Source: Escherichia phage vB_EcoP_R4596 | Strand: one strand, 5' to 3' | DNA length: 45,130 nucleotides | Sequence record: MK373771.1 | Part shown: piece by piece, positions 2,408 to 45,130 of the stretch | Layout: each line of letters opens with the position of its first letter | How positions within the stretch are numbered: the stretch's first letter is position 1 | Made by a program: the position numbers and the translations under genes | The notes under the pieces: generated by a model | Databases searched by the model: none | Told to the model about the DNA's origin: nothing | What the model saw: the letters and a program-made list of their open reading frames with translations, nothing else

Positions 2408-3331
2408 ATGACTACTGAAAACACCCTCCTGTCTGTTCGTGAAGCTGCAACCGCTGAGATCAAGCAACACTTAGACAATATCGGCACTTCTTACATCAAA
2501 GTTGGCGCTTGTCTTAATGAGTTACGCGGTGACTTTGAAGGTCAAAAAGACTTTTTGGCTTATGTAGAATCAGAATTTGGAATCAAGAAAGCACAATGTT
2601 ACAAGCTGATGAGTGTAGCCCGTGTCTTTGAAGGCGATGATCGCTTTAAAGGCGTGGCGATGCGTGTAATGCTGGCACTTGTTCCTTTCGCTGATGAAAA
2701 TATCATCATGGAGAAAGCCGCAGAACTTGCCGCAGCGGGCAAGCTGGACACTAATGCCGTAAATGCCCTGATTGATCCTAAGAAAGAGACAAAGGCCGAG
2801 ACGGTACAATCTAAGGCTGAGGCGGTAAAACCGCAGGAGAATGCGACTGAGGCCGCAGAAACTATGCAAGGACATGCGACCTTTGAGGATTTCATCTTAG
2901 AGAAGGCGAAAGAGGAATTACAAAGTGTGCCGCCAGTAAGTGAGTCGGGTAACGACGAATCCGCACCGTGGGAAGATGAAAGCAAGCCGGAAGCGCCAAA
3001 GGCCGCGCCACTGGATAACACGGCTAACACGGAGAACGCCGCTATGTCTGGCCTACTGGCACAAATTAAGGCACTGACTGAGCAATTACAGGCAGCTAAC
3101 GACCGCATCGCCGCCCTAACCAGTGCACGGGAAAGTAAGAAAGCGGCTGCGCCTATGCTTCCGCAGTTTAAATCCTCTTGCTTCTACGCTCGCTTAGGCT
3201 TGAGCGCCGAGGAAGCAACGAAGAAAACAGCAGTGAATAAGGCACGCCGTGAACTGGTTAAACTAGGGTATGGTGAAGGTCATGAGGCATGGCCTTTGAT
3301 CTCTGAGGCAGTAGAAGAATTAACTAAGTAA
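2408..3331 (+). CDS. Hypothetical early protein (307 aa) with low-complexity acidic/Ala-rich centre and coiled-coil C-terminal region
   Basis: Long ORF; AAGGTGA Shine-Dalgarno before ATG 2408 (track begins at GTG 2399); no kinase or other motif recognized. Confidence 0.6.
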   Translation: MTTENTLLSVREAATAEIKQHLDNIGTSYIKVGACLNELRGDFEGQKDFLAYVESEFGIKKAQCYKLMSVARVFEGDDRFKGVAMRVMLALVPFADENIIMEKAAELAAAGKLDTNAVNALIDPKKETKAETVQSKAEAVKPQENATEAAETMQGHATFEDFILEKAKEELQSVPPVSESGNDESAPWEDESKPEAPKAAPLDNTANTENAAMSGLLAQIKALTEQLQAANDRIAALTSARESKKAAAPMLPQFKSSCFYARLGLSAEEATKKTAVNKARRELVKLGYGEGHEAWPLISEAVEELTK

Positions 3332-3394
3332 CCTTATCGGTGGCATCTTCTTAGGTGTCACCTATTAAGGTTTCTTTCACTAGGAGTAAACAAG

Positions 3395-6022
3395 ATGCAA
3401 GATCTACACGCTATTCAGCTTCAGCTTGAGGAAGAAATGTTTAACGGCGGTATTCGTCGCTTTGAAGCAGACCAACAACGCCAGATTGCATCAGGTAATG
3501 AATCCGATACGGCATGGAATCGTCGCCTGTTGTCGGAGCTTATCGCACCTATGGCGGAAGGTATTCAGGCTTATAAGGAAGCCTACGAAGGCAAGAAAGG
3601 ACGCGCACCGCGTGCACTGGCCTTCATTAACTGCGTAGAGAACGAAGTGGCAGCATATATCACGATGAAGATCGTAATGGATATGCTTAACACAGATGTA
3701 ACCTTGCAAGCCATAGCAATGAATGTAGCTGATCGCATCGAAGATCAAGTACGCTTCAGCAAGCTGGAAGGCCACGCCGCCAAATACTTTGAAAAAGTTA
3801 AGAAGTCACTCAAGGCAAGTAAGACTAAATCATATCGCCATGCGCACAACGTAGCGGTAGTGGCTGAGAAGTCAGTAGCTGACCGTGACACTGATTTCTC
3901 CCGCTGGGAGGCGTGGCCTAAAGATACCTTACTGCAAATCGGTATGACCTTGCTAGAAATACTGGAGAATAGCGTATTCTTCAATGGTCAACCTGTCTTC
4001 CTCCGCACCTTGCGCACTAATGGTGGCAAGCATGGTGTTTACTACTTACAGACCAGTGAGCACGTAGGGGAGTGGATTACAGCATTTAAAGAACATGTAG
4101 CGCAACTTAGTCCGGCCTATGCACCTTGCGTCATTCCTCCGCGCCCTTGGGTGTCCCCTTTTAATGGTGGGTTTCATACTGAGAAGGTGGCAAGTCGCAT
4201 CCGTTTGGTAAAAGGCAACCGTGAGCACGTCCGTAAGCTGACCAAAAAGCAAATGCCAGCAGTTTATAAGGCTGTTAATGCTTTACAGGCCACTAAGTGG
4301 CAAGTTAACAAAGAAGTTTTGCAGGTAGTAGAAGACGTTATCCGTCTCGACCTTGGTTATGGTGTACCTTCCTTTAAACCACTCATCGACCGCGAGAACA
4401 AGCCGGCTAACCCAGTGCCGTTAGAATTTCAACACTTGCGAGGCCGCGAACTGAAGGAAATGTTAACGCCGGAACAATGGCAAGCCTTCATCAACTGGAA
4501 AGGTGAATGCACCAAGCTGTATACCGCTGAGACTAAGCGCGGAAGTAAGTCGGCGGCAACCGTTCGCATGGTAGGACAAGCGCGCAAATACAGCCAGTTT
4601 GATGCGATTTATTTCGTGTATGCACTGGATAGCCGCTCACGCGTTTATGCGCAATCTAGCACACTCTCACCGCAATCAAACGACCTAGGCAAGGCGTTAC
4701 TGCGTTTTACCGAAGGGCAGCCGCTAAATAGCTCTGAGGCGCTTAAATGGTTTTTGGTGAACGGGGCGAATAACTGGGGTTGGGATAAGAAGACTTTCGA
4801 CGTGCGCACCGCTAACGTACTGGACGGCGAGTTTCAAGATATGTGCCGCGACATTGCAGCGGATCCTCTGACCTTTACTCAATGGGTAAATGCCGATTCA
4901 CCTTATGGATTCCTTGCATGGTGCTTTGAGTATGCTCGTTATTTGGATGCACTGGATGAAGGAACACAAGATCAGTTTGTGACGCATTTACCTGTTCATC
5001 AAGATGGTAGCTGTTCTGGCATCCAGCACTACAGTGCTATGCTACGCGACGAAGTGGGTGCGAAGGCGGTAAACCTTAAACCATCCGACTCGCCTCAAGA
5101 TATTTATGGAGCGGTTGCGCAGGTTGTTATCCAGAAGAACTACGCCTACATGAATGCAGATGATACAGAAACTTTCACATCTGGAAGCGTAACACTTACA
5201 GGTGCAGAACTGCGTAGCATGGCTAGTGCATGGGATATGATAGGTATCACTCGCGGCTTAACCAAAAAGCCGGTAATGACCTTGCCTTACGGATCCACAC
5301 GCTTAACCTGCCGTGAGTCAGTGATTGATTATATCGTTGATTTGGAAGAAAAAGAGGCACAAAGGGCTATTGCAGAAGGGCGGACGGCTAATCCGGTGCA
5401 CCCTTTTGACAATGACCGGAAAGACTATTTAACACCGGGTGCAGCTTACAACTATATGACGGCGTTAATTTGGCCTTCTATCTCTGAGGTTGTTAAAGCC
5501 CCTATAGTGGCAATGAAAATGATTCGCCAGCTTGCACGTTTCGCAGCTAAAAGGGATGAAGGATTAGAATACACCTTGCCAACTGGCTTCATCCTGCAAC
5601 AAAAGATAATGGCTACCGATATGCTTCGTGTATCCACTTGCTTGATGGGTGAAATCAAGATGAGTCTACAAATTGAAACGGATGTAGTGGATGAAACGGC
5701 AATGATGGGCGCTGCCGCTCCTAACTTTGTTCACGGTCACGATGCTAGTCACCTTATATTAACGGTATGTGACCTAGTGGATAAAGGTATTACCTCCATT
5801 GCAGTTATCCATGACTCTTTCGGTACTCATGCAGGCCGCACCGCAGACCTGCGGGATAGCTTAAGGGCAGAAATGGTGAAGATGTATCAAGGCCGTAACG
5901 CTTTACAACAATTGCTTGATGAGCATGAAGAGCGTTGGCTAGTAGATACTGGCATCCAAGTGCCAGAGCAAGGGGAGTTTAACCTTGAAGAGATATTAGT
6001 TTCTGACTATTGCTTCGCATAA
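3395..6022 (+). CDS. Single-subunit DNA-dependent RNA polymerase (T7 gp1-like, 875 aa)
   Basis: Motifs [38 protein letters not shown] and C-terminal ...DYCFA match the T7/SP6 RNAP family; GGAG ribosome-binding site. Confidence 0.97.
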
Positions 6023-6030
6023 TATTGATA

Positions 6031-6060
6031 GGCCATTCCTTCGGGAGTGGCCTTTTCTTT
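6031..6060 (+). terminator. Stem-loop terminator after the RNAP gene
   Basis: GGCCATTCC-TTCG-GGAGTGGCC followed by TTTTCTTT. Confidence 0.55.
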
Positions 6061-6095
6061 ACCTATTACCTGTAACATTTCATTAACATAAACGT

Positions 6096-6111
6096 GTCTC
6101 ACATGTGAGAC
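6096..6111. repeat. 16-bp perfect palindrome GTCTCACATGTGAGAC (copy a)
   Basis: Read directly; immediately 5' of the promoter at 6113. Confidence 0.9.
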
Positions 6112-6112
6112 T

Positions 6113-6135
6113 TATTTACCGGACACTATAGGAGA
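6113..6135 (+). promoter_or_regulatory. Phage-RNAP promoter
   Basis: TTTACCGGACACTATAGGAGAG; matches the window consensus. Confidence 0.7.
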
Positions 6136-6278
6136 GCCGTCGGAGACGGGAAAGAGAAGGGAAGATAAAGGATATAAAGGAAGTAATAGGTATTAAAGGT
6201 TATATAGGTTTACCTAGGAATACCTATTACCTTCTTCCTTCCTCTTATTACCACTTAGAGGAAGGGCAGATCTAGGTT

Positions 6279-6294
6279 GTCTCACATGTGAGAC
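6279..6294. repeat. 16-bp perfect palindrome GTCTCACATGTGAGAC (copy b)
   Basis: Read directly; immediately 5' of the promoter-like sequence at 6299. Confidence 0.9.
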
Positions 6295-6298
6295 TTCG

Positions 6299-6321
6299 TA
6301 TTTACCGGACAGTATAGATAA
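6299..6321 (+). promoter_or_regulatory. Phage-RNAP promoter-like sequence (variant CAGTATAG)
   Basis: TATTTACCGGACAGTATAGATAAG; one substitution in the conserved CACTATAG core. Confidence 0.45.
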
Positions 6322-6347
6322 GACTAACTTACTTTGGAGATTTAACT

Positions 6348-6476
6348 ATGCGTAACCTAGAAAAGATTACCCGTAAAACTAAGCGTTTCGACATGGAAGA
6401 AGGGCAGACTAAAGGCAAGAAGCTGAATAAACCTGTCCGTGACCGTGCATCTAAACGCGCTGCGTGGGAGTTCTAA
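6348..6476 (+). CDS. Small basic protein (42 aa)
   Basis: GGAGA ribosome-binding site; Lys/Arg-rich translation MRNLEKITRKTKRF... Confidence 0.4.
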   Translation: MRNLEKITRKTKRFDMEEGQTKGKKLNKPVRDRASKRAAWEF

Positions 6477-6479
6477 GTT

Positions 6480-8468
6480 ATGGCTATTATTCAGAATGTA
6501 CCGTGTCCTGCCTGTCAAAAGAATGGACATGATATTACTGGCAACCATCTTATGATATTTGAGGATGGCGCTGGTTACTGTAATCGTGGTCACTTCCATG
6601 ATAACGGTAAGCCTTACTATCATAAGCCAGAGGGCGGCATCGAGATAACCGAATTGCCCATTACTGGCAATATCAAATACACACCTTCTCAATTCAAAGA
6701 AATGGAGAAGGAAGGGAAGATAAGCGACCCTAAGCTACGCGCCATCGCACTAGGTGGTATGCGTATGAAAGACCGTTGGGAGGTCATGAATGAGCAAGAA
6801 AGGGCAGAGCAAGAAGCAGAGTGGAAACTTGATGTTGAATGGTTCCTCACGCTTAAGCGTAAGAATCTTGTTTCCCGACACATTCGCGGCGACATTTGCG
6901 CATTGTATGATGTACGTGTCGGACATGATGAAGAGGGTAGAGTCTCACGGCATTACTATCCACGCTTCGAGAAAGGTGAACTAGTAGGCGCTAAGTGTCG
7001 CACATTACCTAAAGACTTTAAGTTTGGTCATTTAGGTAAACTATTTGGTATGCAAGATCTTTTCGGTATGAACACTTTGTCTCACGTGTTAGACAAGGGG
7101 AGACGAAAGGATTGCTTGCTTATTGTAGGCGGTGAACTTGATGCACTAGCAGCGCAGCAGATGCTCCTTGATTCTGCCAAAGGTACTAAGTGGGAAGGTC
7201 AGCCATACCATGTATGGTCTGTCAATAAAGGTGAGTCTTGCCTTGAAGAGATAGTGCAAAACCGTGAGCACATATCCCAATTCAAGAAGATTATATGGGG
7301 CTTTGATGGCGACGAGGTGGGGCAGAAGCAGAACCAACAAGCTGCTCGCCTGTTTCCTGGCAAATCCTACATCCTCGAATATCCATCTGGTTGCAAAGAT
7401 GCTAACAAGGCATTGATGGCTGGCAAGGCTAAAGAGTTTGTAGATGCATGGTTTAATGCCAAGTCATCTGATGAAGTCTTTGGTAGCCAGATTAAATCTA
7501 TCGCATCTCAAAGGGATAAGCTCAAGGCTGCACGTCCAGAACAAGGGCTGTCATGGCCTTGGCCTAAGCTAAACAAGGTAACGCTGGGTATCCGTAAGAA
7601 TCAGCTTATCATTGTAGGCGCAGGCTCTGGTGTGGGTAAGACTGAGTTCCTCCGTGAAGTAGTTAAGCATCTCATTGAAGAACACGGTGAATCTGTAGGC
7701 ATCATTTCTACAGAAGACCCGATGGTTAAGGTGTCCCGTGCTTTTATCGGTAAGTGGATTGATAAGCGTATTGAGCTACCGCCAACCAATGACCCGAAAG
7801 AAGATGGATACCGTGAGGTGTTCGACTATACCGAGGAAGAGGCTAACGCTGCCATTGACTATGTAGCTGATACAGGGAAGCTGTTTGTGGCTGACCTAGA
7901 GGGTGACTATTCAATGGAGAAGGTAGAGCAGACCTGCCTTGAGTTTGAGGCTATGGGTATTTCCAATATCATCATTGATAACTTAACGGGGATTAAATTA
8001 GATGAGCGTGCTTTTGGTGGGAAGGTTGGTGCACTTGATGAATGCGTCAAGCGGATTGGTACTATCAAAGACCGACACCCAGTTACTATATTCCTTGTAT
8101 CACACCTTACACGTCCTCCGGCAAACCGTACCCAACACGAAGAAGGTGGCGAAGTTATCCTTTCTGACTTCCGAGGCTCAGGAGCTATCGGATTCTGGGC
8201 ATCTTACGCCTTGGGCATCGAAAGGAACACGAGGGCAGAGACACTAGATGAGCGAACTACTACCTATATTTCCTGTGTTAAAGATAGGGATCAAGGGATT
8301 TACTCTGGTACTAAGATTATGCTTAAGGGTGACATCGCTACGGGCCGACTGCTAGAACCACAAGCCCGTACTAAGTCATTTGATACAGGTGAAGCAAGGC
8401 AACAAGAAGTACCTGATTTACCGGACACTATAGAAGAGACAACCTTTGACGATGAACAGGAGTTTTAA
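6480..8468 (+). CDS. DNA primase/helicase (T7 gp4-like, 662 aa)
   Basis: N-terminal Cys4 zinc motif CPACQ...CNRGH, Walker A GAGSGVGKTE, acidic C-terminal tail ending DDEQEF. Confidence 0.93.
   Translation: MAIIQNVPCPACQKNGHDITGNHLMIFEDGAGYCNRGHFHDNGKPYYHKPEGGIEITELPITGNIKYTPSQFKEMEKEGKISDPKLRAIALGGMRMKDRWEVMNEQERAEQEAEWKLDVEWFLTLKRKNLVSRHIRGDICALYDVRVGHDEEGRVSRHYYPRFEKGELVGAKCRTLPKDFKFGHLGKLFGMQDLFGMNTLSHVLDKGRRKDCLLIVGGELDALAAQQMLLDSAKGTKWEGQPYHVWSVNKGESCLEEIVQNREHISQFKKIIWGFDGDEVGQKQNQQAARLFPGKSYILEYPSGCKDANKALMAGKAKEFVDAWFNAKSSDEVFGSQIKSIASQRDKLKAARPEQGLSWPWPKLNKVTLGIRKNQLIIVGAGSGVGKTEFLREVVKHLIEEHGESVGIISTEDPMVKVSRAFIGKWIDKRIELPPTNDPKEDGYREVFDYTEEEANAAIDYVADTGKLFVADLEGDYSMEKVEQTCLEFEAMGISNIIIDNLTGIKLDERAFGGKVGALDECVKRIGTIKDRHPVTIFLVSHLTRPPANRTQHEEGGEVILSDFRGSGAIGFWASYALGIERNTRAETLDERTTTYISCVKDRDQGIYSGTKIMLKGDIATGRLLEPQARTKSFDTGEARQQEVPDLPDTIEETTFDDEQEF
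8415..8438 (+). promoter_or_regulatory. Phage-RNAP promoter inside the 3' end of the primase/helicase gene
   Basis: GATTTACCGGACACTATAGAAGAG. Confidence 0.65.
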
Positions 8469-8629
8469 TGGAAATTATTAAACCAGTATTGAATATCGGT
8501 ATTGAGATCCTATTCATGCTTGTGATCGCAGATTATGCTGCACGATATGGATTCAAGAAAGCTGTGAAACTTATCGTTGCATCTGGTTTTCTTATGTCAA
8601 TGTTCTTTATTGTAACACGTCTTATCTAG
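8468..8629 (+). CDS. Small hydrophobic membrane protein (53 aa)
   Basis: ATG overlaps the primase stop (TAATG); translation MEIIKPVLNIGIEILFMLVIADYAA... is hydrophobic. Confidence 0.4.
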   Translation: MEIIKPVLNIGIEILFMLVIADYAARYGFKKAVKLIVASGFLMSMFFIVTRLI

Positions 8630-8646
8630 TGTATTTATCAGGGCTT

Positions 8647-8662
8647 GTCTCACATGTGAGAC
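8647..8662. repeat. 16-bp perfect palindrome GTCTCACATGTGAGAC (copy c)
   Basis: Read directly; flanks extend the potential stem to about 12 bp. Confidence 0.9.
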
Positions 8663-8701
8663 AGGCTCTTATTAAGTACATTAAATAACTGGAGATTGAT
8701 T

Positions 8702-9653: not shown

Positions 9654-9840
9654 ACACAGCCTTAAGATGTTTGATGGTCATGAAGACCTGCAAGCACAAA
9701 TTACTAACCAAGCCTTCCTGTTTGCACAGTTAACTATGGCTGAAGCAAAGAAGAACAGCCTTACTCGTGAGCAGATTATCAAGGAAGGTAGCCGTGGTGT
9801 TACTCGTCGTACCAAGAACCACAGAAGTGGTGCTCGCTAG
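9643..9840 (+). CDS. Hypothetical protein (65 aa)
   Basis: ORF overlapping the upstream gene end; weak ribosome-binding site. Confidence 0.35.
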   Translation: MQNKHSLKMFDGHEDLQAQITNQAFLFAQLTMAEAKKNSLTREQIIKEGSRGVTRRTKNHRSGAR

Positions 9841-9857
9841 TCGATAAGTCAAGGGTT

Positions 9858-9873
9858 GTCTCACGTGTGAGAC
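9858..9873. repeat. Palindrome variant GTCTCACGTGTGAGAC (copy d, 15/16)
   Basis: One substitution in the central tetranucleotide; flanks AAGGG...CCTTT can extend the stem. Confidence 0.85.
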
Positions 9874-9998
9874 AGCCTTTCATCATATTGATTGGAGGTG
9901 CATTATGCCACGTGATTATGATTCTGATTGGGACTACTATGACTCAATGAATCCAAAACCCGAACGTTCAGATGATTACTACGAAACAGAGGCAATGT

Positions 9999-12545: not shown

Positions 12546-12729
12546 TGGATAGATTAGATATTGTTTGCTTGTTCTTTACCTTCTTTCTTGTCTTTCTTAT
12601 GCTTGCTTGTTATGGAAGTATTCAGGTAAATATACCTGATGAAGAGGAAGGATACGACTGAGTTATACTCAAGGTCACTTACGAGTGGCCTTTATGAATA
12701 ACTTACTCCTACTTATTTTGTCTAACATG

Positions 12730-12752
12730 ATTTACTGGACACTATAGAAGGA
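12730..12752 (+). promoter_or_regulatory. Phage-RNAP promoter
   Basis: ATTTACTGGACACTATAGAAGG. Confidence 0.75.
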
Positions 12753-12816
12753 AAGCCTAGGTAATCTAGGTTTATAAGGTAGTATAGGTAATTAAGTAAA
12801 TATAGGAGATATAAAT

Positions 12817-13194
12817 ATGTCTATGGTAACTACTCTGGTATTCGTAGCTCAATACTTTCGTGGCCTGGCTAATAAGTTTAAACAGAAAGCAATCTTTGCA
12901 ATTCAAGAACGTATTAATAAAATTGAAGAAGAACAAGTAGATGTAGAGGAACATCGTAGTTCTCAGATGATTGACCTGCATAATCGTCTGTACAAAGATC
13001 GTGATGAGATGCGTCACCGTCATGCGAAGGAAGTTGAAGACATGCTTAACCGCCATGCGGAAGAACAAGCTAAGTTGGAAACCACCTTCCATGAGGATAA
13101 ACGTAGCATCGCTCTAGCACATCAAGCTGCATCGGATATCCTGAAGAGAGAGATTGTTATGCTGGAGATTGAGTTAGACAATCTTACCAAATAA
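12817..13194 (+). CDS. Hypothetical protein with hydrophobic N-terminus and charged coiled-coil region (125 aa)
   Basis: GGAGA ribosome-binding site; no family recognized. Confidence 0.55.
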   Translation: MSMVTTLVFVAQYFRGLANKFKQKAIFAIQERINKIEEEQVDVEEHRSSQMIDLHNRLYKDRDEMRHRHAKEVEDMLNRHAEEQAKLETTFHEDKRSIALAHQAASDILKREIVMLEIELDNLTK

Positions 13195-13356: not shown

Positions 13357-14163
13357 ATGGCACGTGGTGATTTTGATTTTGGTGCTCAGGTTACTAAAGC
13401 TGAAGGTAAAGTATTTAAGAACCCTGAAGTTGGTGATCATGAAGCAGTAATCTCTGGCATCATTCATGTTGGTTCCTTCCAAGATATTTTTAAGAAAGGT
13501 AATACCACTGAGGTTAAGAAGCCAGCAAACTTTGTTCTAGTTAAGATTATCCTGATGGGTGACGATGACAAGAATGAAGATGATTCTCGCATGGAACAGT
13601 GGATGGCTGTACCGCTGAAGTCTGGTGACAAGGCAACCTTGACTAAGTTCTTGAATGCAGTTGACCCCAAAGAATTGCTTGGTGGCTTCGATGACTTCAT
13701 CGGTGAATGCCTGACTGCAACCATGGTTGGTTCTGGTGATAAGAATGACGATGGCTCATTCAAGTATGTTAACTGGAAGGGTTTTGGTGGTATGCCGGAC
13801 AAGCTGAAGAAACTTGTCATTGCTCAGGTTGAAGAGGAAGGTCTGTCTATGACAGGTCATATTACCTTTGACAAGCTGACCAAAGAAATCCTTGATGACA
13901 TTCCTGCTAACTTGGTACGCCAATACTTCCTGAATGAAACCCCTCGTGGTAAGAACCTGTCTGTTGCTGGTTCTCACGTAGAAGAAATCATTAAAGCTGC
14001 TCGTGAAGAAGATCCTGAGTGGAAGAAGGCTAAGAAGAAAGATGACGAGGATGCTACTCCAGCTAATCGTAAGTCTCTGGACACTGGCGAGTCTGTTCCA
14101 CAGGAAGTGCCGGAGGCAGAGGACACTCCTGCACCGGAAATGGATGAAGACGCGGAATACTAA
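13357..14163 (+). CDS. Putative ssDNA-binding protein (gp2.5-like role inferred, 268 aa)
   Basis: Position in the replication module and acidic C-terminal tail ...PEMDEDAEY ending in an aromatic residue, as in the T7 gp2.5 and gp4 tails; no direct sequence match recalled. Confidence 0.35.
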   Translation: MARGDFDFGAQVTKAEGKVFKNPEVGDHEAVISGIIHVGSFQDIFKKGNTTEVKKPANFVLVKIILMGDDDKNEDDSRMEQWMAVPLKSGDKATLTKFLNAVDPKELLGGFDDFIGECLTATMVGSGDKNDDGSFKYVNWKGFGGMPDKLKKLVIAQVEEEGLSMTGHITFDKLTKEILDDIPANLVRQYFLNETPRGKNLSVAGSHVEEIIKAAREEDPEWKKAKKKDDEDATPANRKSLDTGESVPQEVPEAEDTPAPEMDEDAEY

Positions 14164-14392: not shown

Positions 14393-14408
14393 GTCTCACA
14401 TGTGAGAC
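14393..14408. repeat. 16-bp perfect palindrome GTCTCACATGTGAGAC (copy e)
   Basis: Read directly; 2 nt after the stop of the 14170-14391 gene and 14 nt before the promoter. Confidence 0.9.
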
Positions 14409-14422
14409 AAATCGGTGTCCAG

Positions 14423-14446
14423 TATTTACTGGACACTATAGAAGAG
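14423..14446 (+). promoter_or_regulatory. Phage-RNAP promoter
   Basis: GTATTTACTGGACACTATAGAAGAG; its upstream half lies in a 9-bp inverted repeat GTGTCCAGT / ACTGGACAC (14415-14436). Confidence 0.75.
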
Positions 14447-19796: not shown

Positions 19797-20006
19797 ATGG
19801 GTGTCGTGAAGAAGGCATTTAAAGCAATTGGTCTTGCACCTGAGACGCCGAAAATTGAGGCGGCTAAGACTCCGGCACAACAGTTAGCGCGTGAACCGGA
19901 GACTACGGCAGAGGATATTACATTAGGCCAAGATGATAGCGCAACGGCTGCGGCACGTGGTAAGCGTGGACTGATTCGTCCAGTGGCATCGAGCTTAGGG
20001 GTTTAA
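19797..20006 (+). CDS. Small virion-associated protein, possibly gp6.7-like (69 aa)
   Basis: AAGGAGG Shine-Dalgarno; located just before the portal gene; composition loosely like T7 gp6.7. Confidence 0.45.
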   Translation: MGVVKKAFKAIGLAPETPKIEAAKTPAQQLAREPETTAEDITLGQDDSATAAARGKRGLIRPVASSLGV

Positions 20007-20205
20007 TATGATGCAAGACACCGACCTTGAGTATGGTCTCCGGCACAACAGTTAGCGCGTGAACCGGAGACTACGGCAGAGGATATTACATTAGGCCAAG
20101 ATGATAGCGCAACGGCTGCGGCACGTGGTAAGCGTGGACTGATTCGTCCAGTGGCATCGAGCTTAGGGGTTTAATATGATGCAAGACACCGACCTTGAGT
20201 ATGGT
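19870..20205. repeat. Perfect tandem duplication, 2 x 168 bp (19870-20037 and 20038-20205)
   Basis: Direct reading; the unit spans the 3' end of the 69-aa gene and the first 10 codons of the portal gene. Confidence 0.95.
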
Positions 20206-27844: not shown

Positions 27845-30787
27845 ATGGCAATTGAACGTCAAGCTGTACAAGGACTAGAAAGAGTACAGTCAAGGGGCGC
27901 GCCAACACCTATGTCTTTCACACCACGACAAGTGAGTATCTCAGGGGGCGCGGATGCCTCCGGTAGTAGATTTTTGGAAGACTTAGTAAACGCTGCAAGT
28001 AGTGTGGCTGATGTCACTACTGCTATCCTTAATCAGCAAGTAGAAGACGATAAGGTTCGCCAGATGGATAGGGCTTTGTCTGGCATGATGCCTTCTGAGG
28101 ATGCTACGGTAGGTGGTGCTCGTGCGCATATGCTGGTTAGTTTACAAAATGATGTAATCGCACAGACAACTGCGCTACAAGTAGAAGCACAGCGATTTCA
28201 AGGTAGTGACGAGGATTGGGAAAACTATGTAGTTCAATCTCGTAATGAGGTACAAAATAGGTTATGGCAAAGTTATCCAGAGCTTCGTGGTGACAAAGAT
28301 TCTATGAGACTTGTCACTAACGCGTTCATGGAGCAGCAACCTAGAATTACTGCAACTAGAGCAGAGGCTAAACTTCGTCAAGAAGAAGAAGCACGAATGC
28401 AATCTATGCAGTCTCGTATTATCATGGCTACACGGGACGTAGCGCCAGATGCCACTGGTGCAGCACTCATCCAGTTACAAAAAGAAGCACTGGCGATGGG
28501 TCTTAGTAAACCTGAGTTTGATCAGATGGTTGCTAAGATTGCATCTGACAGAGCGGCAGTAGGAGATGATAGTCTTATTCAGGGAACCAAAGCACTGGTG
28601 GATGATAAGGGTGTCTCTTTGTATGACCGTGTTGGTGCTTTGCAAACTGGAGAGATTCAAGCTAACAGAGCTTGGGCTGCGCAGAATCAGGTTGCCCTCT
28701 TTGAGAAGAAGGATGCAGCTATAAAGGCATTCGATGCAGGGCAACTTACTCGTGAAGAGTTACTTCAGGTGATGCAGAATCACAATGAATTGACTGGTGG
28801 TACTGCTTGGTCTGATAGCGAGATCAAGGCTATCTTCGATAGGCAAGCTAAGGCTAATGCAGAGAAAGCAAAGCTCGAAGATCTTATTGCACGAGGTGAA
28901 TCTGGGTCGCCTTTAGGTTTACAGGATATTAGTAAGGATGACAGAAAATCCTATGCTGAAGCCTTAGTTAGTACCTACACTAAGTTGGCAGAAGATGAAA
29001 TTGCCCGTACTGGTGCAACGGGAGAACAGGCTGAAGCTATTCGCGGTAGGTATGAGCAGATGCGTTATCTTAAATTAGGGCAACAACTTATTGAAGACCC
29101 AATCATTAAGGAAAGATATTCGTCGCTTATGCAATTATCCTCTGCCAACCTTAAAGATATGAATGTTGAGCCTGAAGCATTACAGACCATCATGCGAGCG
29201 CGGGACTCTATTCCAGAGGATGCACGTCGTGCTGTCATGGGAGACAAAGAGTATGCCTTTGTAGAGAACTACGACCTAGCAACTCGCATGGGGTATAACG
29301 CAGGTCAAGCTATTGAGTTTGCACAGAATGCCTCTCGTGGAGAGAAGCTACAAGGTTCTGTACTTAAAGAACTGAATGATGATGTAGATGGAGTTGTAAG
29401 TGATGTGGCAGGAGGTAGTTGGCTTACTCGTGGCGATAATATGAGTGAGATGGGTCGTGACATTATGATGGAGGAGGCAAGTACAATTGCGAGAGCAATG
29501 AAGGTTGCAGGTCATAATAATGACACGATTAAACGTCATCTTAAATCCTATTTGACGAGCCAGTATACACAGTTATCAGAGGGCTTCTTCACCCAAGGTG
29601 TTCTGGTGAAAGGTGATGTACGAACATTAGGTGACACTATAGGAGTAAACCAGAATGACCTTCCTATGGCGCTACGTCAATATATGGATAACAACAAGCA
29701 AGCACTTCTTGATGCATCAGGTGGCTTAGAAGAGGGTGATTTGTATTTTGATGTAGATGCGCAGCGGGGACTCTTTACCATACGTGCAGGGTCTGGTCGT
29801 GTACCTGTTACGCAGGCAATGCCTTTGTCTGAAATCAAAGGGCAGTCCTTGCTTAAGCAAAGATATGATGCAGAGGTTAAAGCCCGTGATGAGGGGCGTA
29901 AGAATTTTGAAGCACAGCAAATGAGGATGTGGGGCGCAGGTGGCTACCAAGCACAACCACCTGCAAAGACTACAGCCAAAACTGTAGGCTCCCGTGGGAT
30001 TGCTGACTTCTTAATGTCACCTGCCTTTGCATCAGGCGAGAATCTACCAGCAAACTTTGAGTTTGGATATAAGAGGAATAATATGGACTTCTACAATTAT
30101 GTAGCCAAGATGGAGAATAATGCCAATGTGGGCTTTGACCGAGTAGCTGGTGTTTATACACCATACAAAGATGCACATGGTCAATCTGTCGGGTACGGTC
30201 ACTTCCTTACTACTGAAGAGAAGAAGAACGGATACATTATGATTGGTACAGAGAAAGTGCCATTCACTCCGGGACAATCTCAATTAACACCAGAACGAGC
30301 CATGCGCCTTCTACAGCAAGACTTGAAGAGTCATGTGCCAAACACTTCAGGGTGGGCTGTTCCATTCGAAGAGATGCACCCAGGTGTTCAGCGTGGCCTT
30401 ATGGACTTGTCCTATAATTTAGGCAAAGGAGGTATCCAGAATGCACCTAAAGCCTATGCTGCGTTTAAGGCTGGCAAGTTTACTGATGGATTTATTGAGA
30501 TGTTATCTACTGCATCTACTGAAGGTAAGCGTAGTACTGGGTTGTTGGTTCGTAGGGCAGAAGCATACAACCTTGCACAGAGTGGAGGTGCTATTCCTAA
30601 GATTAGTGAAGTAGAGACACGAGCCGATGGGTCTATGTATGTTAAGTTTGCAGGACAGATGTCAGAGGCTTTCGTAAATAAATCAATCTACAATCAGATT
30701 GGTAAGGATGGATGGCTGCAAGTGTACCCTCCAAAACAAGGTGTACTTGCACCTAACACCAAGATTGGTAGAATCAAACTAAGCTAG
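27845..30787 (+). CDS. Internal virion protein with C-terminal lysozyme-like (GH24) domain
   Basis: Position; C-terminal MENNANVGFDRVAGVYTPYKDAHGQSVGYGHFLT...GVQRGLMDLSYNLGKGG resembles the T4-lysozyme Glu/Asp/Thr core as recalled. Confidence 0.75.
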   Translation: MAIERQAVQGLERVQSRGAPTPMSFTPRQVSISGGADASGSRFLEDLVNAASSVADVTTAILNQQVEDDKVRQMDRALSGMMPSEDATVGGARAHMLVSLQNDVIAQTTALQVEAQRFQGSDEDWENYVVQSRNEVQNRLWQSYPELRGDKDSMRLVTNAFMEQQPRITATRAEAKLRQEEEARMQSMQSRIIMATRDVAPDATGAALIQLQKEALAMGLSKPEFDQMVAKIASDRAAVGDDSLIQGTKALVDDKGVSLYDRVGALQTGEIQANRAWAAQNQVALFEKKDAAIKAFDAGQLTREELLQVMQNHNELTGGTAWSDSEIKAIFDRQAKANAEKAKLEDLIARGESGSPLGLQDISKDDRKSYAEALVSTYTKLAEDEIARTGATGEQAEAIRGRYEQMRYLKLGQQLIEDPIIKERYSSLMQLSSANLKDMNVEPEALQTIMRARDSIPEDARRAVMGDKEYAFVENYDLATRMGYNAGQAIEFAQNASRGEKLQGSVLKELNDDVDGVVSDVAGGSWLTRGDNMSEMGRDIMMEEASTIARAMKVAGHNNDTIKRHLKSYLTSQYTQLSEGFFTQGVLVKGDVRTLGDTIGVNQNDLPMALRQYMDNNKQALLDASGGLEEGDLYFDVDAQRGLFTIRAGSGRVPVTQAMPLSEIKGQSLLKQRYDAEVKARDEGRKNFEAQQMRMWGAGGYQAQPPAKTTAKTVGSRGIADFLMSPAFASGENLPANFEFGYKRNNMDFYNYVAKMENNANVGFDRVAGVYTPYKDAHGQSVGYGHFLTTEEKKNGYIMIGTEKVPFTPGQSQLTPERAMRLLQQDLKSHVPNTSGWAVPFEEMHPGVQRGLMDLSYNLGKGGIQNAPKAYAAFKAGKFTDGFIEMLSTASTEGKRSTGLLVRRAEAYNLAQSGGAIPKISEVETRADGSMYVKFAGQMSEAFVNKSIYNQIGKDGWLQVYPPKQGVLAPNTKIGRIKLS
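29624..29646 (+). promoter_or_regulatory. Candidate intragenic phage-RNAP promoter
   Basis: CATTAGGTGACACTATAGGAG matches the SP6-type core TTAGGTGACACTATAG. Confidence 0.4.
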
Positions 30788-30804
30788 TGGTATACTCAAG
30801 GTTT

Positions 30805-30820
30805 GTCTCACATGTGAGAC
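30805..30820. repeat. 16-bp perfect palindrome GTCTCACATGTGAGAC (copy f)
   Basis: Read directly; between two internal virion protein genes; flanks AAGG...CCTT and a following TTTATGAAT shared with the hairpin at 12648. Confidence 0.9.
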
Positions 30821-30854
30821 ATGCCTTTATGAATGACACTGACTAGGAGGTAAC

Positions 30855-40113: not shown

Positions 40114-40137
40114 TATTTACTGGACACTATAGGAGGA
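40114..40137 (+). promoter_or_regulatory. Phage-RNAP promoter followed by AT-rich TAGGT-repeat region
   Basis: GTATTTACTGGACACTATAGGAGGAAG. Confidence 0.75.
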
Positions 40138-40271
40138 AGACCAAGAGAGTAAAAGGAATATTATAGGATAATATAGGATTACCTAGGTTATATAGGTGTA
40201 CCTTAGTATGGGTGTACTCCTGTACACCCTATTCTTACTTACTATTTACTTATACGTATAAGGAGTATTAG

Positions 40272-44845: not shown

Positions 44846-45130
44846 TCTCGCCCTCGCCCTCGCCGGGTTGTCCCCATAGGGTAGCCTGAGGGAATCCGTC
44901 TCCGACGGGCAGGGCTGATGTACTCTTTGTACTAGCTTAGTAGTACACAAGGGCTGGCCTTTTGTTTTGCCGTGTACTAGTAAGGTGGAACGCTGTAGAC
45001 GGCCTAGGACGGCCTAGGGAATGGCTTAGTGGCGGACAAGGTGATTGCCTTAGTGAAGCCTCTTAGCGCATTCCTGAGGCCATTCAGGGCGTTTATGAGG
45101 TATTGACAGGGTGTGCGTGGGTGTGGGCTA
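44846..45130. repeat. Right direct terminal repeat (identical to 1-285)
   Basis: Direct reading; truncated by the window end. Confidence 0.9.

Follow-up and report, generated by a model that had tools for sequence, protein, structure and literature searches.

Does the non-coding DNA directly downstream of the RNA polymerase (RNAP) gene of Escherichia phage vB_EcoP_R4596 (sequence record MK373771.1) correspond to the primary replication origin of phage T7, and might it act as one? The window analyzed here is the entire 45,130-bp stretch of that record, which comprises a complete, linear phage genome bounded by direct terminal repeats of 285 bp (1-285 = 44846-45130) and falls in the Vectrevirus (K1-5/K1E) group of subfamily Molineuxvirinae, SP6 supergroup. 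Judged by sequence comparison, the locus is a conserved twin-promoter and leader module that is positionally homologous to the T7 primary origin. We lean, by a narrow balance, toward the fuller explanation that it is the SP6/K1-5-group counterpart of T7 phi1.1A-R1.1-phi1.1B and forms the first middle-gene unit after the early terminator. By analogy with T7, a transcript-primed replication origin at this locus is plausible, although for that part of the explanation our confidence falls somewhat short of even.

A sequence-only reading of the window had placed two phage promoters ~185 bp apart between the RNAP and primase genes, and this proved accurate. Using the genome's own consensus on the coding strand (-17 to +1, ATTTACCGGACACTATAG), we found that P1 (6114-6136, -17 to +6) matches exactly at 6114-6131 (18/18) and starts at G6131, while P2 (6300-6322) reads ATTTACCGGACAGTATAG at 6300-6317 (17/18) and starts at G6317, its single deviation being a conserved C to G change at -5. 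The two +1 sites are 186 bp apart, and both promoters lie on the plus strand and are kept in relatives. Matches with up to three mismatches numbered 13 in the window, where 0.02 would be expected; among these 13 promoters, the first 100 nt after P1 are the most purine-rich (0.70) and the most G-skewed (+0.54). A counterpart of P1 was present in all nine lineages compared. In eight of the nine, the -8 to -1 core of P2 deviates from that of P1, at a position that depends on the lineage; in Pectobacterium phage PP1 the two promoters differ only at -17/-14. Between P1 and P2 there is no open reading frame (ORF) of at least 24 codons on either strand, which rules out a hidden coding region, and the deposited records of SP6, K1-5, and K1E carry no annotation at the inter-promoter locus.

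T7 replication starts at phi1.1A/phi1.1B, with secondary origins that include phiOR and phi6.5 (PMC8373140). The T7 record lists gene 1, phi1.1A (5848), phi1.1B (5923), and gene 1.1 in that order. In the window, the left boundary is the single-subunit RNAP gene (3395..6022, plus strand; Pfam RNA_pol, E = 5e-89, and RPOL_N, E = 1e-31), whose counterpart is labeled RNAP in the K1-5 and SP6 records. To the right of P2 lies a gene 1.1 homologue of 42 codons (6348..6476, plus strand; Pfam Phage_1_1, E = 1.6e-14), its product being 51% identical to T7 gp1.1 (E = 3e-11), and the primase/helicase gene (6480..8468, plus strand; Pfam Toprim_2 and DnaB_C, in agreement with relatives' records) forms the right boundary. 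Since a gene 1.1 homologue follows P2, the region is syntenic with T7 phi1.1A-R1.1-phi1.1B, and the positional equivalence to the T7 primary origin that had been suggested from the letters alone is upheld. Both loci have the RNAP gene to the left, gene 1.1 to the right, two tandem phage promoters with no gene between them, and AT-rich and hairpin-forming segments between or near the promoters. They differ in promoter spacing (186 bp here, 75 bp in T7) and in the place of the early terminator, which lies ahead of the module here and after gene 1.3 in T7. In addition, T7 is without the phased AGG array, the CCNTC-GRA-GANGG stem-loop, and the 16-bp palindromes described below. Origin activity has been demonstrated for T7 only.

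Two elements of the P1 leader bear the clearest marks of constraint. The first is a 5' stem-loop, CCGTC-GGA-GACGG (6137-6149, plus strand), occupying +7 to +19 of the P1 transcript and paired in 15 of 15 distinct sequences. Its middle pair is GC in nine, AU in four, CG in one, and UA in one, while the remaining four pairs are invariant, giving the general form CCNTC-GRA-GANGG across lineages; none of 500 shuffles reached its covariation score. The second is an A/G-rich and AT-rich array (6150-6218, plus strand) of seven AGG units at 6158, 6169, 6178, 6188, 6197, 6206, and 6216, spaced 9-11 nt apart, with a repeat period of 9-10 nt. The GG doublets are invariant in 21 sequences from five genera or groups while the spacers between units vary, and in the six lineages that can be aligned across the spacer the units keep a register of ~+29, 39, 49, 58, 68, and 77 from +1. 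In lineages with shorter spacers (phD2B, PP1, and the Kp7 group), the first two or three units hold this register. Spacings of 8-11 nt make up 83% of 63 AGG spacings, vs. 9% genome-wide.

The genome's three longest phased AGG runs, 6158-6216 (the longest), 12749-12786, and 40154-40194, each stand directly after a phage promoter. The second promoter-plus-array module (12730-12790, plus strand; promoter start at 12747; units at 12749, 12759, 12768, 12777, and 12786) follows the DNA polymerase gene in the lowest-GC part of the genome, is also found in SP6, and is preceded by a predicted T7-type RNase III site at 12660-12707. The third (40115-40200, plus strand) directly follows the large terminase gene, which is the position of T7 phiOR, and is also present in SP6 and Klebsiella phage vB_Kp_H01. 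The array recurs at three promoters per genome, in places parallel to the T7 primary and secondary origins, yet downstream of T7 phiOR or phi6.5 themselves no phased repeat is evident. If the arrays or the stem-loop specify origin promoters, they would answer a question that T7 met only with "an AT-rich region downstream". As a separate observation, downstream of the third module (40132-40200) come a strong hairpin (~40209-40230) and a C/T-rich tract. A 13-mer of the P1 leader, CCGTCGGAGACGG, also recurs exactly but inverted in the terminal repeat (51-63 and 44896-44908, minus strand). Its terminal-repeat copy is present in CrRp3 and absent from SP6, vB_Kp_H01, phD2B, PP1, and Pm5460. Nor do the two copies covary, since the CrRp3 leader reads CCATC..GATGG and its repeat still reads CCGTC..GACGG. 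On both counts we rejected a functional link.

Comparison with related phages, which had been named as a check on the proposed origin, showed that the module recurs in eight further Molineuxvirinae lineages. The full layout runs from terminator, palindrome, P1, stem-loop, AGG array, and C/T tract through a second palindrome (in some lineages) to P2 and gene 1.1, and it was found in nine lineages (K1-5, SP6, BP12B, the Klebsiella cp4 group, an uncultured L099/L119 group, Proteus Pm5460, Lelliottia phD2B, Pectobacterium PP1, and the Klebsiella Kp7 group) with P1-P2 spacings of 129 to 188 bp. IMG/VR and metagenome contigs were also searched for relatives and added few further lineages. Erwinia phage Era103 has two palindromes, one full promoter, and an AGGT array, with no C/T arm, and Vibrio phage phiA318, of another subfamily, has a terminator labeled TE and, around a purine-rich spacer, two promoters 82 nt apart. 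At closer range, Escherichia phage vB_EcoP-101117UKE2 matches positions 5900-6500 at 100% identity, the identity with K1-5, K1E, and other Vectrevirus phages being 92-96%. Among 14 Vectrevirus genomes, 0-33% of sites vary within the 325-nt non-coding region, compared with 71-82% at flanking third codon positions, and this difference indicates strong purifying selection on the non-coding DNA. P2 (4% of sites variable) and the C/T arm at 6219-6246 (4%, among the least variable non-coding stretches) are nearly fixed, palindrome 2 is invariant (0%), and the spacer 6060-6095 varies at 18% of sites. Many candidates for phage therapy against E. coli K1, Salmonella, Klebsiella, and Proteus belong to the SP6/K1-5 group, for which no origin is annotated. 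Origins have been mapped experimentally in T7 itself, and the T7 primary-origin locus now has a precise positional counterpart, with conserved sub-elements defined base by base, that offers a ~250-bp target for origin assays, minimal replicons, or attenuation.

To the left of P1, the early-transcript terminator is a hairpin with a 10-bp stem (six GC pairs) followed by TTTTCTTT (6030-6062, plus strand), flagged by a terminator scan and found after the RNAP gene in every relative examined. It leads into a conserved spacer, TACCTATTACCTGTAACATTTCATTAACA (6060-6095, plus strand), which is kept in K1-5, SP6, and the Klebsiella cp4 group. The first 12 nt of this spacer, TACCTATTACCT (6060-6071), recur as an exact direct repeat at 6221-6232; the first copy lies 24 nt upstream of palindrome 1 and the second 46 nt upstream of palindrome 2, and both are the complement of the array unit AGGTAATAGGTA.

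Between the promoters, the sequence-only reading had described a long imperfect inverted repeat with an A/G-rich and a C/T-rich arm around an AT-rich center. The repeat is real, with the AGG array as its left arm, but more fragmented than described. Its core arms (6177-6194 and 6219-6236) are 18 nt long and 89% complementary, its outer arms (6152-6165 and 6233-6246) 14 nt and 86%. The C/T-rich arm (AATACCTATTACCTTCTTCCTTCCTCTTATTACCAC; 6219-6256, plus strand) can pair with both left segments, or part of it, 6237-6245, can pair with 6257-6265 instead, and the minimum-energy fold takes the latter pairing. As RNA, 6131-6299 is predicted to form four helices, i.e., the 6137-6149 stem-loop, a long hairpin (6177-6200 paired with 6212-6236, extendable to 6152-6165/6233-6246), the 6237-6245/6257-6265 hairpin, and the palindrome, at -49.6 kcal/mol (z = -2.2 against dinucleotide shuffles); z is -4.9 when the segment is folded as DNA and -4.4 for the reverse strand as RNA. 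A search of the whole window with Rfam 15 returned no family at the gathering threshold, and miRNA-precursor-like matches on the hairpin were sub-threshold (up to 22.8 bits, against thresholds of 64-100). The AT-rich center inside the repeat was borne out at 27-30% GC (60-nt windows at ~6160-6220, downstream of P1 and upstream of P2). The lowest 60-nt value between the promoters, 26.7%, lies at the 0.14th percentile of the genome, and this center is one of ~10 equally AT-rich 60-nt windows. Over 6160-6219 the GC content is 0.30 with a GC skew of +0.78, and the skew flips to -0.50 at 6200-6259. The SP6 primase is said to recognize 5'-GCA-3', as reported by Tseng, Frick and Richardson in 2000. 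One GCA is present at 6266-6268 (within GGGCAGA), as expected by chance for a trinucleotide; K1-5 and SP6 keep it, whereas the cp4, BP12B, and L099 lineages do not.

How might such a module start replication? In T7, DNA synthesis is primed by transcripts that the phage polymerase starts at either of the two promoters. By the same route, the consensus P1 would start the 186-nt non-coding leader, which would fold into the 5' stem-loop, a long irregular hairpin of AGG array against C/T tract, and the palindromic hairpin; P2, conserved and slightly off-consensus, would then start the messenger RNA (mRNA) for gp1.1 and primase/helicase. Transcription from P1 across the AT-rich, strongly G-over-C-skewed array would probably open the duplex and leave an RNA-DNA hybrid, and from this hybrid the phage DNA polymerase and primase/helicase could start replication. 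What makes transcript-primed initiation plausible is the composition of the module together with its recurrence at positions like those of the T7 origins. ColE1 RNA II and R-loop replication in rnhA mutants are likewise transcript-primed origins with a persistent RNA-DNA hybrid, and the locus resembles a ColE1-type origin in its promoter-driven, structured, G-over-C-skewed transcript over an easily opened region; this likeness is one of mechanism, with no sequence relationship. Consistent with R-loop priming, plasmids carrying T7 origins depend on the loss of RNase H (PMC8373140). In addition, the leader structures probably have a role as RNA, in stability, processing, or control of downstream translation.

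Several observations weigh against this account, some against origin function and others against a conserved leader structure. Of the T7-like promoter pair and AT-rich region that had been proposed, the pair and its position hold, but the AT-rich part lies between P1 and P2, whereas in T7 it follows both promoters. P2 leaves only 30 nt between its start and the gene 1.1 start codon, and over the first 100 nt downstream the promoter at 12747 has a lower GC content (0.31) than P1 (0.39). The long hairpin showed no register-specific covariation: from 21 sequences, RNAalifold retained the 5' stem-loop and the palindrome and nothing else. We therefore regard the hairpin as compositional complementarity and not as a proven conserved helix. 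Cognate and non-cognate lineage arms have similar duplex energies, any AGG arm pairing about equally with any C/T arm, and three left-arm substitutions within Vectrevirus lack compensation. The plus and minus strands also have similar fold energies; since both fold about equally well, strand asymmetry was rejected as a discriminator and an RNA structure is indistinguishable from a DNA structure on these grounds. Cumulative GC and AT skew over the whole genome rise monotonically with no origin inflection, though with all genes on one strand this is uninformative. The literature searched yielded no replication data for SP6/K1-5-group phages, apart from a passage of PMC4837284 in which Dobbins et al. 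(2004) are credited with placing the SP6 origin at the DNA polymerase gene; that place, as given second-hand, is near the second array module.

The alternative that survives best, though we consider it rather unlikely, is that P1, P2, and the leader are an expression module only, governing how much gp1.1 and primase/helicase mRNA there is, how stable it is, or how it is translated, with replication starting elsewhere, e.g., at the 12730-12830 module, the 40115-40200 module, or the genome ends. The best-supported constraints are indeed transcript-like (a covarying stem-loop at +7 to +19 and a fixed register from +1), and similar arrays precede ordinary genes at 12817 and 40272. The 12747 module, moreover, is more AT-rich and adjoins the DNA polymerase gene, where, in the second-hand mention above, an SP6 origin has reportedly been proposed. 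However, expression alone gives no account of 186 non-coding nt conserved like first and second codon positions, nor does it sit easily with a gene-free tandem promoter pair that is kept in three Autographiviridae subfamilies and that in T7 is the primary origin.

With somewhat greater reserve, we raise the possibility that SP6-group phages carry, in the form of the phased AGG array, a distinct and so far undescribed functional element; we found no description of phased AGG arrays or of the covarying stem-loop in the available literature. Such an element could determine an origin, by stabilizing the hybrid of transcript and template or by loading primase/helicase on the displaced G-rich strand, or it could equally be an RNA array for a phage or host factor, with the stem-loop as a nucleation or control element. 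A sponge of the CsrA type was rejected: the CsrA-type motif is GGA, and most array units read GGU.

It is also conceivable, but unlikely, that RNase III processes the transcript at the long inverted repeat, which would make the repeat the direct equivalent of T7 R1.1. T7 R1.1 too lies between phi1.1A and phi1.1B, as checked on the T7 sequence, so that both hairpins are transcribed from the first of two promoters, and ACCTTCTTCC is common to the inter-promoter locus and the 3' side of R1.1. The C/T arm ends in CCTCTTATTA (6242-6251), like the 3' consensus of T7 sites, CCUUUAU/GA, and the site at 8666. The predicted hairpin, with >20 irregular base pairs, has the usual length of an E. coli RNase III substrate (PMC1540722); it offers the ~two helical turns of mostly double-stranded RNA, a property that is by itself unspecific. 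The T7-type frame of outer stem, CUCAAGG, upper stem, and CCUUUAU/GA is not found at the inter-promoter locus, and the hairpin is about twice as long as R1.1 and built of repeats. From seven T7 RNase III sites, their positions verified against the T7 sequence, we derived a covariance model, which gave seven plus-strand matches in the genome (54 to 17 bits), all of them predicted sites and none annotated in the related records inspected. The best, 12660-12707 (54.3 bits), is nearly identical to T7 R1.1/R0.5; 30786-30842 (35.5 bits), 9839-9895, and 8628-8684 have palindrome copies as upper stems; and 3327-3377, 2339-2386, and 1546-1592 are early intergenic sites. Although the model finds these clear sites elsewhere, within 6060-6330 it returned no match at E up to 10, and it behaved alike in SP6 and vB_Kp_H01, including at the inter-promoter locus. 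The lack of register-specific covariation counts against a processing site as well. On the covariance-model results, the long repeat is not a canonical R1.1 homologue, and the candidate was dropped in that form.

The same results bear on the 16-bp palindrome, GTCTCACATGTGAGAC, that had been noticed ahead of each promoter and taken as part of an origin-like architecture. The observation itself was correct, with exact copies at 6096-6111, ending 2 nt before the -17 of P1, and at 6279-6294, ending 5 nt before that of P2. However, with up to three mismatches there are eight copies in the window (0.17 expected), the others being at 610-625, 7079-7094, 8647-8662, 9858-9873, 14393-14408, and 30805-30820, so the palindrome is real but not special to this locus. 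It belongs to a dispersed family, GTCYMAC-NN-GTKRGAC, with nine copies in SP6 and seven in Klebsiella phage vB_Kp_H01 at syntenic sites. Together with its place in three of the predicted RNase III sites, this argues that it is not an origin mark. Palindrome 2 is absent from the Proteus, Lelliottia, Pectobacterium, and Klebsiella-Kp7 lineages. Exact-sequence literature searches for it found no match.

Could the palindromes instead be operators, with a dimeric DNA-binding protein acting through them on P1, P2, and the promoter at 14441? We think this quite improbable. Three copies do end 2-15 nt upstream of a promoter's -17 (19-32 nt before +1), two arm variants occur and each is kept on both arms, and the 16-bp core is preserved regardless of flanks, even within the primase/helicase coding sequence, where at codon 200 (7079-7094) the residue, His or Asn, tracks the palindrome variant. 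Against this, the three copies that form upper stems of T7-type RNase III hairpins lie far from promoters, and no candidate binding protein was identified. The core pairs covary (UA/UG/CG and AU/CG), and U-G wobbles are favored on the transcribed strand: one core pair is UG in seven cases and unpaired in three, and of the nine copies in SP6 six read GTCTAAC..GTTGGAC; this preference points to an RNA hairpin.

Least likely of all is a discrete P1 small RNA of ~165 nt, ending near the palindrome-2 hairpin and binding a protein or the ribosome through its AGG units, for although its 5' stem-loop, central structure, and 3' hairpin with U-rich sequence give it the shape of a bacterial small RNA, the terminator scan flags 6279-6294 plus TTCGTATTTA, its AGG units are invariant between variable spacers, and it matches no Rfam family, the 3' hairpin is short (6 bp, three GC pairs), the SP6 hairpin has no U run after it, palindrome 2 is missing in four array-bearing lineages, and the units are mostly GGU, unlike the CsrA-type motif.

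Some further observations concern the immediate surroundings of the module. An HNH homing endonuclease gene lies beside gene 1.1 in VEc3, G9, LL11, Mt1B1_P10, BP12B, and UAB_Phi78, with insertion points that correspond to ~6355 and 6476-6480, immediately to the right of the module. The closest GenBank record, L153 (MZ234019.1), lists two tiny minus-strand "hypothetical proteins" at 3600-3695 and 3922-4011, which equal 6007-6102 (terminator) and 6329-6418 (gene 1.1) of the window, and omits the gp1.1 homologue; these two ORFs are probably annotation artifacts.

Elsewhere in the genome, a run of CTTAGT/ACCTTAGT units (~330-470) lies just inside the left terminal repeat and is also found in SP6, PP1, Pm5460, and vB_Kp_H01. 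It resembles the short-repeat arrays beside the T7 terminal repeats, and the reverse complement of its SP6 version, ACTAAGGTA, is similar to the AGGTA units of the P1 array. The inner edge of the terminal repeat carries ATCTGTT (285-291), kept in SP6, PP1, Pm5460, and phD2B, which we take to be the T7 class II pause/termination signal of the concatemer junction. A perfect tandem duplication of 168 nt occupies 19870-20205, its two copies being 100% identical. Finally, the ORF at 13357-14163 (268 codons) encodes a very acidic C-terminal tail with an aromatic last residue (…EMDEDAEY), presumably the hallmark of a T7 gp2.5-type single-stranded DNA-binding protein.

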